A stretch of DNA of 64,000 nucleotides from assembly GCF_013167455.1 (NCBI RefSeq), contig NZ_CP038328.1, one strand, 5' to 3'. The stretch is from Escherichia coli O157:H7. GTDB lineage: Bacteria; Pseudomonadota; Gammaproteobacteria; Enterobacterales; Enterobacteriaceae. Position 1 is the stretch's first letter; each line of letters begins with the position of its first letter. Below the pieces are notes generated by a model, which did not search any database, had not been told where the DNA came from, and was given only the letters and a program-made list of their open reading frames with translations. Shown here one piece after another: positions 12,806-54,492 of this stretch. Made by a program: the position numbers and the translations under genes.

Positions 12806-14383
12806 ATGACGGAAAACATTCATAAGCATCGCATCCTCATTCTGGACTTCGGTTCTCAGTACACTCAACTGGTTGCGCGCCGCGTGCGTGAGCTGGGTGT
12901 TTACTGCGAACTGTGGGCATGGGATGTGACAGAAGCACAAATTCGTGACTTCAATCCAAGCGGCATTATTCTTTCCGGCGGCCCGGAAAGTACTACTGAA
13001 GAAAACAGCCCGCGTGCGCCGCAGTATGTCTTTGAAGCAGGCGTACCGGTATTCGGCGTTTGCTATGGCATGCAGACCATGGCAATGCAGTTGGGCGGTC
13101 ACGTTGAAGCCTCTAACGAACGTGAATTTGGCTACGCGCAGGTTGAAGTCGTAAACGACAGCGCACTGGTTCGCGGTATCGAAGATGCGCTGACCGCAGA
13201 CGGTAAACCGCTGCTCGATGTCTGGATGAGCCACGGCGATAAAGTTACCGCTATCCCGTCCGACTTCGTCACCGTAGCCAGCACCGAAAGCTGCCCGTTT
13301 GCCATTATGGCTAACGAAGAAAAACGCTTCTATGGCGTACAGTTCCACCCGGAAGTGACTCACACCCGCCAGGGTATGCGCATGCTGGAGCGTTTTGTGC
13401 GTGATATCTGCCAGTGTGAAGCCCTGTGGACGCCAGCGAAAATTATCGACGATGCTGTAGCTCGCATCCGCGAGCAGGTAGGCGACGATAAAGTCATCCT
13501 CGGCCTCTCTGGTGGTGTGGATTCCTCCGTAACCGCAATGCTGCTGCACCGCGCTATCGGTAAAAACCTGACTTGCGTATTCGTCGACAACGGCCTGCTG
13601 CGTCTCAACGAAGCAGAGCAGGTTCTGGATATGTTTGGCGATCACTTTGGTCTTAACATTGTTCACGTACCGGCAGAAGATCGCTTCCTGTCAGCGCTGG
13701 CTGGCGAAAACGATCCGGAAGCAAAACGTAAAATCATCGGTCGCGTTTTCGTTGAAGTATTCGATGAAGAAGCGCTGAAACTGGAAGACGTGAAGTGGCT
13801 GGCGCAGGGCACCATCTACCCTGACGTTATCGAATCTGCGGCGTCTGCAACCGGTAAAGCACACGTCATCAAATCTCACCACAACGTGGGCGGCCTGCCG
13901 AAAGAGATGAAGATGGGCCTGGTTGAACCGCTGAAAGAGCTGTTCAAAGACGAAGTGCGTAAGATTGGTCTGGAGCTGGGCCTGCCGTACGACATGCTGT
14001 ACCGTCACCCGTTCCCGGGACCAGGCCTTGGCGTTCGTGTTCTGGGTGAAGTGAAGAAAGAGTACTGTGACCTGCTGCGCCGTGCTGACGCCATCTTCAT
14101 TGAAGAACTGCGTAAAGCGGACCTGTACGACAAAGTCAGCCAGGCGTTCACCGTCTTCCTGCCAGTACGTTCCGTTGGCGTAATGGGCGATGGTCGTAAG
14201 TATGACTGGGTTGTCTCTCTGCGTGCTGTCGAAACCATCGACTTTATGACCGCACACTGGGCGCATCTGCCGTACGATTTCCTCGGTCGCGTTTCCAACC
14301 GCATTATCAATGAAGTGAACGGTATTTCCCGCGTGGTGTATGACATCAGCGGCAAGCCACCAGCTACCATTGAGTGGGAATGA
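12806..14383 (+). CDS. guaA: GMP synthase (glutamine-hydrolysing)
   Basis: Track ORF 525 aa; GATase domain plus ATP-PPase SGGVDS motif. Confidence 0.97.
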
Positions 14384-14407
14384 TTTGACCCTGCACTATG
14401 AATGAAC

Positions 14408-14438
14408 AAAACCCTCTGTTACTACAGAGGGTTTTTTA
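14408..14438 (+). terminator. rho-independent terminator after guaA
   Basis: aaaaccctctg-ttacta-cagagggtttttt. Confidence 0.7.
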
Positions 14439-14475
14439 TCTTCAAGAATTATAGGCTTGAAGTTACTAACATCGA

Positions 14476-15015
14476 TTAATTAAACCAGCTGTCCGATTTA
14501 TTCTCTTCTGCTTTGCCCACGCTTTTCATCAGATCGCGACCGCCTTCAGTCATATTTCTGTTGGCGTCAGCTTCAGATTGCACGACATCAGTTTGCGCGG
14601 CTTTGTGCTTCAGCTCCTGATCGATAAATTCGTTTTCTCGCTTAACGCGGGCTTCTTCTTTTGCCAGCGCCAGTTTTTGTTTCTGAATCTCTAAGCTGCG
14701 TAGCTCATCTTCATAACTTTGATCGCGTTTTTTGTCCGCAGTGGCTTCGGCGTCCAGTTTATCCTGACGAGCTTTCTTATTTGCCGCTGCCGTTGCCGCT
14801 CTTTTGTTAGCGGCAGCCTGGGCATTTGCGCGACGTTGCTTCTCTTGCTGGATTTCCCTGTTGCGCTCCGCGACCCATTCGTCATGCTGCCTTTGCTCTT
14901 CATTTTTACCTTGCTGTTCCGCTTCTGCGACAGCAGAGAGTTGATCCTGCAATGATGAGGCGATAGCCGGATAGCTTAAGGAGGCTAAGATGGCGCAAAG
15001 AAAAACTTTCTTCAT
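14476..15015 (-). CDS. yfgI: YfgI, secreted/periplasmic coiled-coil Lys/Glu/Gln-rich protein
   Basis: Track ORF 179 aa; signal peptide; charged low-complexity body. Confidence 0.85.
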   Translation of the reverse strand: MKKVFLCAILASLSYPAIASSLQDQLSAVAEAEQQGKNEEQRQHDEWVAERNREIQQEKQRRANAQAAANKRAATAAANKKARQDKLDAEATADKKRDQSYEDELRSLEIQKQKLALAKEEARVKRENEFIDQELKHKAAQTDVVQSEADANRNMTEGGRDLMKSVGKAEENKSDSWFN

Positions 15016-15030
15016 GACTCCTCCTGATTA

Positions 15031-15549
15031 TTAGCTCTTTTCAGGACATTTGGTATTTGGCTGAATACGCGTTTCGTTATACGTCGTGGTAATAACAACG
15101 GCTAAACCTGTCGTAAACTGGCACTCTTTACCCACCTGAGTAGAGGTATACACTTTGGTGCCTTCCTTATACGTTAAAGAAACACCTTCCACTAAGGTTT
15201 TATCATTCATCATAGAACCCGCTGCCGCGCCTACAGCTCCGCCGCCAACTGCACCTGCCGTCGTTCCGGAATTGCTGCCAGACCCGACGTTGTGGCCGAT
15301 AACACCGCCAGCGACTGCGCCAATAAGCGCGCCGAAGGCTTGTGCGTTCCGTTTATTTTGGGAGTTGTCTACGGCAACTTTTGCGGGAAGAATGGAAATA
15401 ATATTAACGGTTTTAGTTTCTTGTTTGGTATTCAGTTGATCGGTTTGATAAACATCGGCGGCATGATCGTCAGCATTTGACTGGCATCCTGCCAGAGTGA
15501 ATGACGCTAACATTGCCACAGGCAGAAGACATTTTTTAAATTTCATCAC
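15031..15549 (-). CDS. yfgH: YfgH, glycine-zipper outer-membrane lipoprotein
   Basis: Track ORF 172 aa; lipobox LAGC; Gly-rich zipper segment. Confidence 0.85.
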   Translation of the reverse strand: MMKFKKCLLPVAMLASFTLAGCQSNADDHAADVYQTDQLNTKQETKTVNIISILPAKVAVDNSQNKRNAQAFGALIGAVAGGVIGHNVGSGSNSGTTAGAVGGGAVGAAAGSMMNDKTLVEGVSLTYKEGTKVYTSTQVGKECQFTTGLAVVITTTYNETRIQPNTKCPEKS

Positions 15550-15859
15550 TATTCCTTGTTATACACATTACGAAAAATAAGACATTTAAGATCATCAAAA
15601 GAGGAAAGTAAATGTATTGCGTATAAAGGGATGGATTAAATTTATTAAAATTCACGCCGGGAATAATTTATAAAAATACATCATTACAACATATATATTA
15701 ATTTTATATTTATTTCGCAGCCAAACAGGATAAACATCAGTCGGGACAAAGACGTATAATTTAAGATGAAAGAATATCTGCCGCTTTGATAATTCCAAAG
15801 AGCAAAAGCATCCGACAGCGAAGCGCCGTTATGTTCTGTGAAAGTGGAGAAGGTAACCG

Positions 15860-16051
15860 CTAACGTTGTACCGGTGATTCGACGGAGAGTGTGGATTGCT
15901 GAGCTTCTTTTTTGCTCTGATGGTGCTGCCAGGCACCGACGGACGAGTAGATAAAACGGCCAAAGAAGAAGATAAAGCTGATGAGCAGTACGATACGGGT
16001 CATGCGACTGTTAAATCGGTGTCGTTTTCGCATACTGGTTGCCTGACTCAC
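15860..16051 (-). CDS. yfgG: YfgG, small membrane protein
   Basis: Track ORF 63 aa with one hydrophobic helix; lies in an AT-rich region, so coding status is less certain. Confidence 0.65.
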   Translation of the reverse strand: MSQATSMRKRHRFNSRMTRIVLLISFIFFFGRFIYSSVGAWQHHQSKKEAQQSTLSVESPVQR

Positions 16052-16261
16052 AAAAGGTTCCTTGAAGTATGTCCCACGCCGTGGACGGTACTTACATTAA
16101 GGCACAACAGGACAAAATGGTCAATTCTTCGTTATGTAAAAAATCGTCAGTGGATACATATTTTAATGTTATGGAAGTTAATTTAATTATTTACAATGAT
16201 GATGTAATAATGATGAATTAACATGATAAACGTAATAATTCATTAATCAGGGTTATTTTGT

Positions 16262-16275
16262 TTGATATATATCAA
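16262..16275 (+). promoter_or_regulatory. FNR box TTGAT-ATAT-ATCAA upstream of pdeF, with candidate -10 TAGAAT at 16297-16302
   Basis: Perfect TTGAT-N4-ATCAA palindrome; centre about 32 bp upstream of the -10 candidate, as for class II FNR promoters; 128 bp upstream of the pdeF ATG. Confidence 0.55.
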
Positions 16276-16402
16276 TTGGAACTTTCATATGACACTTAGA
16301 ATCAATGCTCTCTATAGTGATGAATAATCATCATTCGAAGTCAGGTGGGATGCCTGTCTGAATACACCTCCTTCAGGATGTGGGGGATTCTGCTGAGCAT
16401 CT

Positions 16403-18646
16403 ATGAAACTGAATGCAACTTATATAAAAATACGTGATAAATGGTGGGGGCTTCCGCTGTTCCTGCCTTCTTTAATCTTGCCCATTTTCGCCCACATTAA
16501 TACTTTCGCGCATATTTCTTCCGGTGAGGTTTTTCTCTTTTATCTGCCTCTGGCACTGATGATCAGCATGATGATGTTTTTCAGCTGGGCGGCATTGCCA
16601 GGGATCGCCTTAGGGATTTTTGTCCGCAAATATGCAGAGCTGGGTTTTTACGAAACGCTCTCATTAACGGCTAATTTTATTATCATTATCATTCTCTGTT
16701 GGGGCGGTTACAGGGTCTTTACTCCCCGGCGTAACAACGTTTCACATGGTGATACCCGTTTAATTTCCCAGCGTATATTCTGGCAGATTGTGTTTCCTGC
16801 AACGCTGTTTCTGATACTTTTCCAGTTTGCTGCATTTGTAGGATTACTGGCGAGCAGAGAAAATCTGGTTGGCGTCATGCCTTTTAATCTCGGGACCTTA
16901 ATCAATTATCAGGCCTTACTGGTGGGCAATCTGATTGGTGTCCCGCTGTGCTACTTCATCATTCGGGTAGTGCGAAATCCGTTTTATTTACGTAGTTATT
17001 ATTCGCAATTAAAACAGCAGGTTGATGTCAAAGTCACCAAAAAAGAGTTCGCACTCTGGCTGCTGGCATTAGGTGCTTTACTGTTGCTGTTATGCATGCC
17101 GTTAAATGAAAAAAGCACAATTTTTAGCACCAATTATACCTTGTCATTATTGCTGCCCCTGATGATGTGGGGAGCGATGCGCTATGGTTATAAGCTGATT
17201 TCGCTGCTCTGGGCGGTCGTGTTGATGATCAGCATCCACAGCTATCAAAATTACATTCCCATTTATCCTGGCTATACCACGCAGCTGACCATAACCTCCT
17301 CCAGTTATCTGGTATTCTCTTTTATTGTCAATTATATGGCTGTACTGGCAACCCGTCAGAGAACGGTAGTCAGACGCATTCAGCGCCTTGCGTATGTGGA
17401 CCCGGTGGTTCATCTGCCAAATGTTCGCGCCCTGAATCGCGCGTTGCGTGATGCCCCCTGGTCTGCGCTTTGTTATTTACGCATCCCTGGCATGGAAATG
17501 CTGGTTAAAAACTATGGCATCATGCTGCGGATTCAATACAAGCAAAAACTTTCTCACTGGCTGTCACCCTTGCTGGAACCAGGTGAAGATGTTTATCAGC
17601 TTTCGGGTAACGATCTCGCGCTGCGACTGAATACAGAATCGCACCAGGAGCGCATTACCGCACTGGATAGCCATCTCAAGCAATTTCGTTTCTTTTGGGA
17701 TGGCATGCCGATGCAACCGCAGATTGGCGTCAGTTACTGCTATGTGCGCTCGCCAGTGAATCATATCTACCTGCTGCTGGGAGAGCTAAATACGGTCGCC
17801 GAACTTTCCATCGTGACCAACGCCCCGGAAAATATGCAGCGTCGCGGGGCAATGTATTTGCAACGCGAATTGAAAGATAAAGTCGCGATGATGAATCGAC
17901 TACAGCAGGCGCTGGAACACAACCATTTTTTCCTGATGGCCCAGCCGATTACCGGTATGCGTGGTGATGTTTACCATGAAATTCTTCTGCGCATGAAAGG
18001 TGAGAATGATGAACTAATCGGCCCCGATAGCTTCTTGCCGGTCGCGCACGAATTTGGTTTATCGTCGAGTATCGACATGTGGGTCATTGAGCATACGCTG
18101 CAATTTATGGCTGAAAACAGAGCGAAGATGCCCGCTCACCGTTTTGCTATTAATCTGTCTCCAACCTCGGTATGTCAGGCTCGTTTTCCTGTTGAAGTCA
18201 GTCAGTTGCTGGATAAATATCAGATTGAAGCGTGGCAACTTATTTTTGAAGTCACCGAAAGTAATGCTCTGACCAATGTTAAGCAGGCGCAAATCACCTT
18301 GCAGCATCTTCAGGAATTAGGCTGCCAGATTGCGATTGATGATTTCGGCACCGGCTACGCCAGCTATGCGCGGCTTAAAAATGTGAATGCCGATCTGCTT
18401 AAAATTGACGGCAGTTTTATCCGCAATATTGTGTCAAATAGTCTGGATTATCAGATAGTGGCATCGATTTGCCACCTGGCGCGAATGAAGAAAATGCGGG
18501 TAGTGGCAGAGTACGTTGAAAACGAAGAGATCCGCGAGGCGGTGCTCTCTTTGGGGATCGATTATATGCAGGGTTATCTTATTGGTAAGCCGCAACCGTT
18601 AATTGATACGCTGAATGAAATCGAACCCATTCGCGAAAGTGCCTGA
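16403..18646 (+). CDS. pdeF: c-di-GMP phosphodiesterase PdeF/YfgF (MASE1, degenerate GGDEF, EAL)
   Basis: Track ORF 747 aa; N-terminal multi-TM region, C-terminal EAL domain. Confidence 0.9.
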   Translation: MKLNATYIKIRDKWWGLPLFLPSLILPIFAHINTFAHISSGEVFLFYLPLALMISMMMFFSWAALPGIALGIFVRKYAELGFYETLSLTANFIIIIILCWGGYRVFTPRRNNVSHGDTRLISQRIFWQIVFPATLFLILFQFAAFVGLLASRENLVGVMPFNLGTLINYQALLVGNLIGVPLCYFIIRVVRNPFYLRSYYSQLKQQVDVKVTKKEFALWLLALGALLLLLCMPLNEKSTIFSTNYTLSLLLPLMMWGAMRYGYKLISLLWAVVLMISIHSYQNYIPIYPGYTTQLTITSSSYLVFSFIVNYMAVLATRQRTVVRRIQRLAYVDPVVHLPNVRALNRALRDAPWSALCYLRIPGMEMLVKNYGIMLRIQYKQKLSHWLSPLLEPGEDVYQLSGNDLALRLNTESHQERITALDSHLKQFRFFWDGMPMQPQIGVSYCYVRSPVNHIYLLLGELNTVAELSIVTNAPENMQRRGAMYLQRELKDKVAMMNRLQQALEHNHFFLMAQPITGMRGDVYHEILLRMKGENDELIGPDSFLPVAHEFGLSSSIDMWVIEHTLQFMAENRAKMPAHRFAINLSPTSVCQARFPVEVSQLLDKYQIEAWQLIFEVTESNALTNVKQAQITLQHLQELGCQIAIDDFGTGYASYARLKNVNADLLKIDGSFIRNIVSNSLDYQIVASICHLARMKKMRVVAEYVENEEIREAVLSLGIDYMQGYLIGKPQPLIDTLNEIEPIRESA

Positions 18647-53755: not shown

Positions 53756-54130
<375 letters not shown>

Positions 54131-54492
54131 TTATGAGAATAAATACTCATTTAAGAGTGAAAACATTTTGCCTGCAAATGATTATCAGGAAATATAACAT
54201 TATCGAAGTATTCAAATTAACAGCTATTAAATAATATTAAACATTTTTAACGTAAACATTAAGAATATTCATCTTGTTATCTGTCTGTATTTTAACCAGA
54301 ATTAAATCAGTATTAGATGCCGTATGAATATCTCGAAATGTTGCTGTGTATCACATACAAATCATCACTGCAGGACCATAGTATTTACATAAGGTTTGTC
54401 CCCCGGAGGTAGTCATCGCAGCAATCGAGTAAATTAGCTTCACCACGGTATATTGTTTCCGTAGAATACCCATAATTATAAGAGAGGTTGTT

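Follow-up and report, generated by a model that had tools for sequence, protein, structure and literature searches.

Two AT-rich spacers of different character between guaA and pdeF of Escherichia coli O157:H7

The gene pdeF (yfgF) of Escherichia coli codes for an anaerobic phosphodiesterase of cyclic di-GMP (c-di-GMP) with a degenerate GGDEF domain (PMC3718329). Its promoter is of class II, with an FNR box at −41.5 and the −10 hexamer TAGAAT, and is activated by FNR under anaerobic conditions (PMC3718329, in which the original description is credited to Lacey et al. 2010). The box also lies under a peak of FNR chromatin immunoprecipitation sequencing (ChIP-seq) that was called by all four peak callers, with a PatSer score of 16.08 (PMC3688515), and the spacer between yfgF and the divergent gene yfgG includes an H-NS site identified by genomic SELEX (systematic evolution of ligands by exponential enrichment; PMC3946193). 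Here, the surroundings of this promoter were analysed computationally in a stretch of 64,000 nucleotides (nt) from E. coli O157:H7 (assembly GCF_013167455.1, contig NZ_CP038328.1), referred to in full as the window. The region in question, positions 14476-16402, holds the small genes yfgI, yfgH and yfgG and two long spacers, and had been described from its letters alone as an AT-rich block (the original prediction).

The functions of the three genes had been called only partly known, which is fair, but more has been published than this implies. YfgG confers tolerance to nickel and cobalt, the sole phenotype reported for it (PMC6338753). The outer membrane is stabilised by YfgH (bioRxiv 10.64898/2025.12.22.696046), which is itself localised there and is induced on depletion of LpxC, LptD and BamA. 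The yfgHI orthologues srgIL are regulated by SdiA and are found in S. Typhi, not in Typhimurium (PMC11619404). For yfgI mutants, sensitivity to DNA damage by nalidixic acid has been reported.

Composition and distribution of the guaA–pdeF interval

In the window, the gene order is guaB, guaA (+), yfgI (−), yfgH (−), yfgG (−), pdeF (+) and ppx (−). The gene calls of the original prediction were exact (yfgI 14476-15015, yfgH 15031-15549 and yfgG 15860-16051, all on the minus strand; pdeF starting at 16403 on the plus strand), and its descriptions of the YfgI, YfgH and YfgG proteins were borne out by Pfam matches, the signal peptide, the lipobox and the helix predictions. The region was 100% identical to that of O157:H7 strain ECP19-598 (NZ_CP066753) and was matched in 5425 of 5426 complete E. 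coli genomes. Spacer 1 (15550-15859) lies between yfgH and yfgG, and spacer 2 (16052-16402) between yfgG and pdeF.

It is considered very probable that the interval consists of two units of different history with no hidden genes: a core unit of yfgG, spacer 2 and pdeF, and an accessory unit of spacer 1, yfgH and yfgI. The locus is otherwise ordinary, and nearly all of it is already annotated or published. It offers one modest new lead, the conserved structured leader of pdeF; the mobility of yfgHI and some annotation errors are minor additions. It also illustrates how two AT-rich spacers that look alike can be opposites: one is a tightly conserved hub of regulation, the other rapidly changing DNA that precedes mobile cargo.

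For the core unit, 80 YfgG-encoding loci were compared, with one genome per species. The gene yfgG was present in 154 GTDB species, all of them Enterobacteriaceae except for two likely mislabelled records. In all 77 loci whose upstream sequence was long enough, pdeF was divergent from yfgG, and the distance between the two start codons (median 351 bp) was 346-355 bp in 50 of 64 species. Across about 5420 E. coli genomes, spacer 2 was at least 99% identical in 4523 and never below 95%. Spacer 2 is a core, length-conserved and densely used divergent control region for yfgG and pdeF, found in every Enterobacteriaceae locus examined. The gene yfgG is core and stands next to pdeF in every genus sampled.

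For the accessory unit, yfgHI were found in only five Escherichia loci and one Pseudocitrobacter locus among the same 80. The Pseudocitrobacter copies were 84% (yfgH) and 83% (yfgI) identical to those of E. coli, compared with 61% for PdeF and 68% for YfgG. The interval between yfgG and guaA ranged from 63 bp to more than 3.7 kb and carried unrelated cargo by genus, namely LysR with a major facilitator superfamily transporter, DUF6130 with a hydrolase, LysR with an old-yellow-enzyme, a glyoxalase, a winged-helix protein, or nothing. The same slot was occupied by yfgHI in C. portucalensis and S. bongori. Spacer 1 was at least 99% identical in only 309 of the approximately 5420 E. coli genomes and 90-95% identical in 1305. 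Its distal part (15626..15859) is AT-rich and fast-evolving with no conserved element, showing 69-82% identity in Escherichia clades compared to 91-96% for the flanking genes, and could not be aligned in E. albertii. Only the 85 bp proximal to yfgH were conserved among chromosomal copies (Escherichia, Pseudocitrobacter, C. portucalensis and S. bongori). In the distal part, the terminator scan gave a weak terminator-like hairpin after yfgG (15828..15813, minus strand).

Both spacers are AT-rich (spacer 1, 67.7%; spacer 2, 65.8% A+T; window, 48%), with 200-bp sub-windows reaching 72-74%, but the figure of about 70% that had been given for them was not reproduced. Nor is the block uniformly AT-rich. 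The GC content of yfgI, yfgH and yfgG is 47.0-49.5%, and the AT-richness therefore belongs to the spacers. The window has 37 intergenic regions (median 117 bp, 43.9% GC), of which spacers 1 and 2 were third and fourth lowest in GC content and ranked fourth and second in length; only 0.55% of 300-bp windows were below 32% GC. The compositional observation is real, and the spacers are extreme though not unique or exceptional in the window. The longest intergenic region, between yffB and ypfM (54113-54492; 380 bp, 31.1% GC), is comparable in kind to both spacers and is likewise marked for H-NS by genomic SELEX.

The original prediction had implied a foreign AT-rich island. If the whole guaA–pdeF interval were one horizontally acquired, H-NS-silenced island, this would fit the low GC content of 14476-16402 as a whole (43%, against a window mean of 52%), the place of both spacers among the four lowest in GC, the SELEX site and the hns/stpA effects at spacer 2, and the plasmid and phage relatives of yfgHI. 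Such an origin agrees with yfgHI and spacer 1, to which the patchiness is limited. It does not agree with yfgG, spacer 2 and pdeF, which are core across the Enterobacteriaceae. The layout of yfgG and spacer 2 beside pdeF was the same in every genus sampled, protein identities of 68-97% tracked taxonomy, and few parts of the locus are better conserved in E. coli than spacer 2; the genes, moreover, are not themselves AT-rich. A single island is already contradicted by this distribution and is considered very improbable.

The yfgG–pdeF control region

The pdeF gene (16403..18646, plus strand) encodes a protein of MASE1-(degenerate GGDEF)-EAL architecture, with Pfam matches to MASE1 and EAL. Upstream of it, the FNR box TTGATATATATCAA (16262..16275) is a perfect consensus, the only match in the window, and is conserved across genera. 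It is centred at 16268.5 and lies 21 bp before the strongly conserved −10 hexamer TAGAAT (16297..16302, plus strand), which is the one named in PMC3718329. Based on the hexamer and the literature, the transcription start site (TSS) was placed at about 16309-16310. A TTGAT-N4-ATCAA box at about −41.5 with a correctly placed −10 is the arrangement of class II FNR promoters such as those of yfiD and dmsA. No difference was found from these or from the published yfgF promoter, with which the present one is identical. Two things are added to the known promoter: the conservation of box, −10 and spacer length in 64 species, and the position of the FNR box some 180 bp upstream of the start of yfgG, which runs in the opposite direction. 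An alternative pdeF promoter, ATGACA-18-TATAGT (16289-16318), was rejected as a match seen in E. coli only and not conserved.

The spacers had also been called typical H-NS targets, and for spacer 2 this was upheld by the published SELEX site and by the effects of hns and stpA; for spacer 1, a look through the literature gave no such evidence. The FNR ChIP signal at the pdeF site increased from 0.35 in the wild type to 1.68 in the Δhns ΔstpA strain (Myers 2013, PMC3688515, Tables S7, S9 and S11). In glucose minimal medium, yfgF showed no FNR-dependent change in the wild type and was O2-responsive only in Δhns ΔstpA (PMC3688515). With its 66% A+T, its H-NS site from genomic SELEX and the rise in FNR occupancy and O2 response in the double mutant, spacer 2 resembles other AT-rich promoters restricted by H-NS/StpA. 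Unlike typical DNA of this kind, it is core and strongly conserved, not foreign; the horizontal origin that is typical of H-NS targets, though not obligatory, was found for yfgHI and spacer 1, and not for spacer 2, yfgG or pdeF. From the published data, H-NS/StpA limit FNR access and pdeF induction at spacer 2, an effect that could be indirect.

On the minus strand, the promoter and 5′ untranslated region (5′UTR) of yfgG (16052..16124) are conserved in nearly all genera examined. The promoter has a −35 element TTGACC (16124..16119), a 17-nt spacer and a −10 element CTTAAT (16101..16096) preceded by TGC. The 5′UTR of 38 nt, with a 5′-proximal CCC/GGG hairpin and the Shine–Dalgarno (SD) sequence AAGGA, is kept in nearly every genus. 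The promoter sequence and an RpoD genomic SELEX peak are published (PMC3946193), as are a σS ChIP peak and a yfgG TSS at 2627275 (PMC4447067), which maps to about 16089, 7 nt past the −10. The GTG start of yfgG is kept in all genera, although many gene callers choose an internal ATG that gives 57 amino acids (aa; 16033-16051).

For the core unit, a mechanism with two divergent arms is proposed. On the minus strand, the σ70/σS promoter TTGACC-17-CTTAAT would drive the hairpin-capped leader and yfgG. On the plus strand, FNR bound to the perfect box, 41.5 bp upstream, would activate the pdeF promoter under anoxia, and the AT-rich DNA around the box may let H-NS/StpA limit FNR access.

The product of yfgG (15860..16051, minus strand) is a 63-aa inner-membrane protein of the DUF2633 family (Pfam, 97.6 bits against a gathering cutoff of 25). 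The alignment over 14 genera (71-89% identity) revealed a basic N-terminus, a single transmembrane or hydrophobic helix and an invariant W-x-H-H-Q directly after the helix. In its length, its single helix and its short conserved motif at the membrane edge, YfgG is similar to the small inner-membrane modulators MgrB, MgtS and AcrZ. As with proteins of this type, its gene is fixed beside that of a membrane sensor, here pdeF with its MASE1 domain, in all loci; it differs from them in that synteny alone connects it to PdeF. The constant divergence of the two genes at a near-fixed distance raises the idea that YfgG may act together with the MASE1 membrane domain of PdeF.

Between the two promoters, per-column conservation across 64 species and the alignment identified four conserved blocks, ATGTAAAAA, CGTCA, AATGTTAT and TATTTACA, within 16134..16194. 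The outer two resemble TyrR half-boxes yet are 47 bp apart. Sites for NikR, RcnR, CRP and TyrR in spacer 2 were rejected on reading the sequence, the matches being too weak or wrongly spaced.

It had further been suggested that the spacers may hide small open reading frames (ORFs) or small RNAs (sRNAs). One candidate is the 50-aa ‘hypothetical protein’ (WP_000017561/WP_000017552; 16069..16221, plus strand) that the Prokaryotic Genome Annotation Pipeline (PGAP) places in nearly all E. coli genomes in RefSeq, antisense to the yfgG promoter and leader. Another is an RNA transcribed from the conserved central blocks. Promoter-like matches on the plus strand of spacer 1 also point this way, though they were no more numerous than in shuffled sequences (5 versus 5.2 expected), and the promoter and terminator consensus scan as a whole gave no excess over shuffles. 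The 50-aa frame had no family match and is unannotated in NC_000913.3. A frameshift breaks it in Escherichia sp. E1V33, and stops interrupt it in Citrobacter, Salmonella, Klebsiella and Kluyvera; where it is intact, the amino acid identity (80-88%) is lower than the nucleotide identity (90-94%). Because the frame is broken in close relatives, the PGAP entry is probably spurious and not a gene, and its annotation would be one to correct. The other spacer ORFs, of 30, 39 and 48 aa (16345-16437, 15536-15655 and 15652-15798), all carry frameshifts or stops in relatives. No meaningful Rfam match was obtained in the spacers even at E values up to 10, and the ribosome-profiling supplement of Stringer et al. 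has no entry in the K-12 ranges 26289xx-26292xx and 26295xx-26296xx, outside which the yfgH-proximal end of spacer 1 lies. The conservation expected of an sRNA was absent from distal spacer 1 and, in spacer 2, fell mostly within the promoters and leaders of yfgG and pdeF, with the exception of the unassigned blocks at 16134-16194. A conserved sRNA or small-protein gene in either spacer is not supported, and an unannotated small protein or trans-acting sRNA encoded there is judged most doubtful.

The 5′ leader RNA of pdeF

The most conserved non-coding sequence of 14476-16402 is the 5′ leader of pdeF, of about 95 nt (16310..16402, plus strand). In alignments of 61-77 species, three hairpins (HP1 to HP3) were identified with a covariance model and a per-sequence hairpin search. 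In 77 of 78 sources the model matched each locus exactly once, in every case directly next to the pdeF AUG, and it matched the window only once. HP1 (16316-16335; mean z −1.06) retained its stem-loop while its sequence turned over completely, the arms being, for example, GAUGA/UCAUC in E. coli but CCGCG/CGCGG in Klebsiella. HP2 (CAGG-UGGGAUG-CCUG, 16342-16356, with GGA at 16348-16350) was 96% paired and nearly invariant, with almost no compensatory change. HP3 (16367-16387) has the loop UUCAGGAUGU with GGA at 16376-16378. A 21-nt direct repeat was also seen, with copies at 16207-16227 and 16314-16334 that are 81% identical; the second copy forms HP1.

The strongest pattern was that of HP3. A GGA was enclosed by it in each of the 77 sequences, and it reached 5 bp or more in 53 of these, compared with a mean of 12.6 and a maximum of 18 for shuffles. 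The loop GGA stayed fixed while the arms took 40 distinct combinations, for example UCCUUCA/UGAAGGA, UGCCUC/GAGGCA and AGCC/GGCU, and the mean energy was −4.64 kcal/mol against −0.05 for shuffles. RNAalifold recovered only three invariant pairs from the MAFFT leader alignment, owing to the misalignment of HP3 there. Realignment to the covariance model helped only slightly, and the per-sequence search was needed to reveal this hairpin.

An alternative long-range helix, GGAUGC:GCAUCU, would pair 16348-16353 with 16397-16402, its second arm abutting the AUG. It is part of the minimum-energy fold in E. coli, and each of its six core pairs was formed in 79-98% of sequences. As essentially no covariation was found in it across the aligned sequences, the helix is unproven, neither supported nor refuted.

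Whether these features agree with a known type of leader was considered next to the leaders controlled by CsrA, such as those of glgC, pgaA, dgcT (ycdT) and dgcZ (ydeH). The SELEX consensus for CsrA is RUACARGGAUGU. The pdeF leader is similar to these in that its GGA loops, UGGGAUG and UUCAGGAUGU, are close to this consensus and lie in the 5′UTR of a c-di-GMP gene. The GGA sites at 16348 and 16376 are separated by 28 nt, and a third lies at 16385. The first two occur in the loops of short hairpins, and at least two sites fall within the distance that a CsrA dimer can bridge, which is reportedly about 10-63 nt. Unlike classical CsrA leaders, that of pdeF has no GGA over its SD, a weak but conserved GAG at −10 to −8, and no site covers the start codon as in the repression type, the nearest GGA ending 16 nt before the AUG. 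A parallel may be ymdA, of the CsrA activation type (PMC7492729), in that the alternative helix could cover the translation-start region. For the paired GGAUG motif, the window contained 5 matches where 3.8 were expected, which is no enrichment and nothing unusual for one genome. In the literature searched, no Rfam family and no paper describing the pdeF leader was found, nor any paper linking CsrA or csrA-dependent expression to pdeF. Rfam 15 gave only chance-level matches in 13800-17000 (E ≥ 1, well below gathering scores), with none in the leader upstream of the AUG.

The pdeF leader is likely to be a functional RNA leader, and CsrA is a reasonable guess for its reader by analogy with the leaders named above. 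In the proposed mechanism, the leader with its three hairpins and two GGA loops would set the level of PdeF translation, most likely through CsrA binding and/or through the alternative helix over the nucleotides just 5′ of the AUG. The full proposal is that the leader is a family-wide cis-regulatory RNA and that CsrA on the two GGA loops, as the likeliest agent, selects between the local hairpin, with the start free, and the long-range helix, with the start hidden. It is advanced tentatively, with a real but clearly less than even chance of being correct. If true, this would link the Csr system with c-di-GMP turnover under anoxia, as a layer added to the control by FNR and H-NS. The FNR promoter is the only level at which regulation of PdeF has been described to date, and the leader offers a testable control point at the RNA level.

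Conservation of the leader (CAGG-N7-CCTG and its neighbours) could instead reflect an operator in the DNA, to which a repressor would bind downstream of the TSS. HP2 is a near-invariant palindrome with hardly any compensatory changes, as an operator would be, and mutual-information analysis with average product correction revealed no strong long-range Watson–Crick covariation, the signal being dominated by phylogeny. Some HP3 arms also resemble NarL heptamers (TACCCAT...TGGGGTA) by eye; as candidate sites these were rejected on reading the sequence, being too weak or wrongly spaced. The operator does not account for HP3, which pairs through its 40 arm combinations around a constant GGA and is far more stable than its shuffles, or for HP1, whose hairpin is retained despite complete sequence turnover. 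Pairing that persists while the sequence changes is the signature of an RNA structure and not of a sequence-specific operator, and the operator is regarded as unlikely.

Several observations weigh against a regulated RNA leader and the wider account of spacer 2. Clear covariation in the leader is confined to HP3. HP2 and the long-range helix, being near-invariant, are equally compatible with a constraint at the DNA level or from protein recognition, and the whole E. coli leader folded no better than shuffles (z −0.36). The supplements of CsrA cross-linking and immunoprecipitation sequencing (CLIP-seq) in E. coli and Salmonella have no entry for yfgF/pdeF; this is uninformative because PdeF is not made aerobically, the protein having been reported as undetectable under these conditions. 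Upstream, the 16134-16194 blocks are conserved without matching a regulator. The pdeF FNR site was scored as having no H-NS ChIP-chip overlap (‘None’, PMC3688515), so that the H-NS/StpA effect may be indirect or condition-dependent. Lastly, the start sites of pdeF and yfgH were both derived from hexamers and the literature.

The yfgH–yfgI pair and its variable slot

SlyB is a PhoP-regulated outer-membrane lipoprotein that forms ring-like nanodomains. The yfgH gene (15031..15549, minus strand) encodes a SlyB-like glycine-zipper outer-membrane lipoprotein, as identified by Pfam and by a structure-database match. Its product has an LAGC lipobox at residues 19-22 and a Gly-zipper 2TM domain (PF05433, E 1.7e-8), and aligned over nearly its full length (residues 8-164) with SlyB (PDB 7ojf, E 1e-10) and weakly with TraT (E 0.03). 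YfgH differs from SlyB in standing beside a DUF5384 partner in every context inspected and in being carried on mobile elements; to our knowledge, neither a DUF5384 partner nor mobile-element carriage has been reported for SlyB. The published suppressor genetics of the two also differ (clsA versus Mla). Based on the SD spacing, the true start of yfgH is likely the ATG at 15546 (171 aa) in place of the annotated GTG at 15549 (172 aa).

The second gene of the pair, yfgI (14476..15015, minus strand), encodes a secreted DUF5384 protein with a signal peptide (Pfam E 4e-62, 209 bits against a gathering cutoff of 25). The AlphaFold prediction for YfgI is one continuous helix of about 160 residues (17-178), with a predicted local distance difference test score (pLDDT) of 85; if straight, it would be about 24 nm long. 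No relative was found among solved structures. The protein is 170, 172, 173, 175, 177, 179 or 180 aa long in E. coli. The differences are guessed to lie in the Ala/Lys-rich mid-helix (residues ~63-85), and this variation is likely a repeat-driven indel polymorphism. No match to YfgI, YfgH or YfgG was obtained with PADLOC.

A putative σ70-like promoter of yfgHI was recognised by its conservation at 15584..15612 on the minus strand, with a −35 element TTTACT (15612..15607), a 17-nt spacer and a −10 element TTAAAT (15589..15584). This would place the TSS at about 15577, and it is followed by a strong SD, AAGGA, at 15558..15554. The accessory unit is envisaged as cargo in the variable yfgG–guaA slot, read from this one conserved promoter just upstream of yfgH; it encodes a SlyB-like lipoprotein and a secreted long-helix partner, a pair that also travels on ColE1-type plasmids and P1-family phage-plasmids.

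A yfgH-like gene adjoined yfgI in 10 of 10 chromosomal, plasmid and phage contexts inspected. This invariable pairing suggests that YfgH and YfgI may act together and, with the presence of the pair on plasmids and P1-like phages, is a reason to study both together.

The yfgHI alleles of E. albertii were 78-79% identical to those of E. coli, compared with 94-95% for the flanks. At the DNA level, yfgH and yfgI of E. albertii and Escherichia sp. MOD1-EC7003 were 77-82% identical to E. coli and the adjoining guaA and yfgG 94-99%, which suggests that the cassette either has undergone allelic replacement or is evolving very fast.

Pairs of a lipoprotein gene and a DUF5384 gene were also found on plasmids of 3.9-7.5 kb, of which those examined were of ColE1 type or carried mobilisation genes. 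On one of them, CP056397.1 (7.5 kb, ColRNAI, MOBP), a phosphoethanolamine transferase gene lies directly upstream of the yfgH/yfgI-like pair, so that an enzyme modifying lipopolysaccharide travels with an outer-membrane stabiliser. On IncY/P1-family phage-plasmids, the pair is represented by upf50.5 and upf50.0 of P7. The order is that of yfgHI, with the lipoprotein gene ahead of one for a DUF5384 protein that carries a signal peptide. The two DUF5384 proteins share 47.5% identity and are strongly conserved in their C-terminal half. The P1/P7 pair differs in its position, with the immI region on one side and late tail genes on the other, and in its upstream region.

The record of phage TL-2011b (NC_019445.1 37863-44784) ends in host DNA (a pdeF fragment, yfgG, yfgH and yfgI) beside Rz, endolysin and holin genes. 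As the phage abuts yfgI, the prophage in O103:H25 lies between yfgI and guaA, and this junction is also an integration point. Homologues of YfgH labelled ‘DNA methyltransferase’ were encountered in P7 (upf50.5, 2476-2997 of the stretch examined), in TL-2011b (gp55, 2355-2870 of NC_019445.1 37863-44784) and in PHROG 1277. The label looks like a propagated annotation error, and these phage entries are a second case for correction.

Between the convergent genes guaA and yfgI, the terminator scan gave a GC-rich hairpin at 14408..14435, with a 12-bp stem followed by a T run. Read directly, the sequence has A/T runs on both sides, and the hairpin is likely a bidirectional intrinsic terminator.

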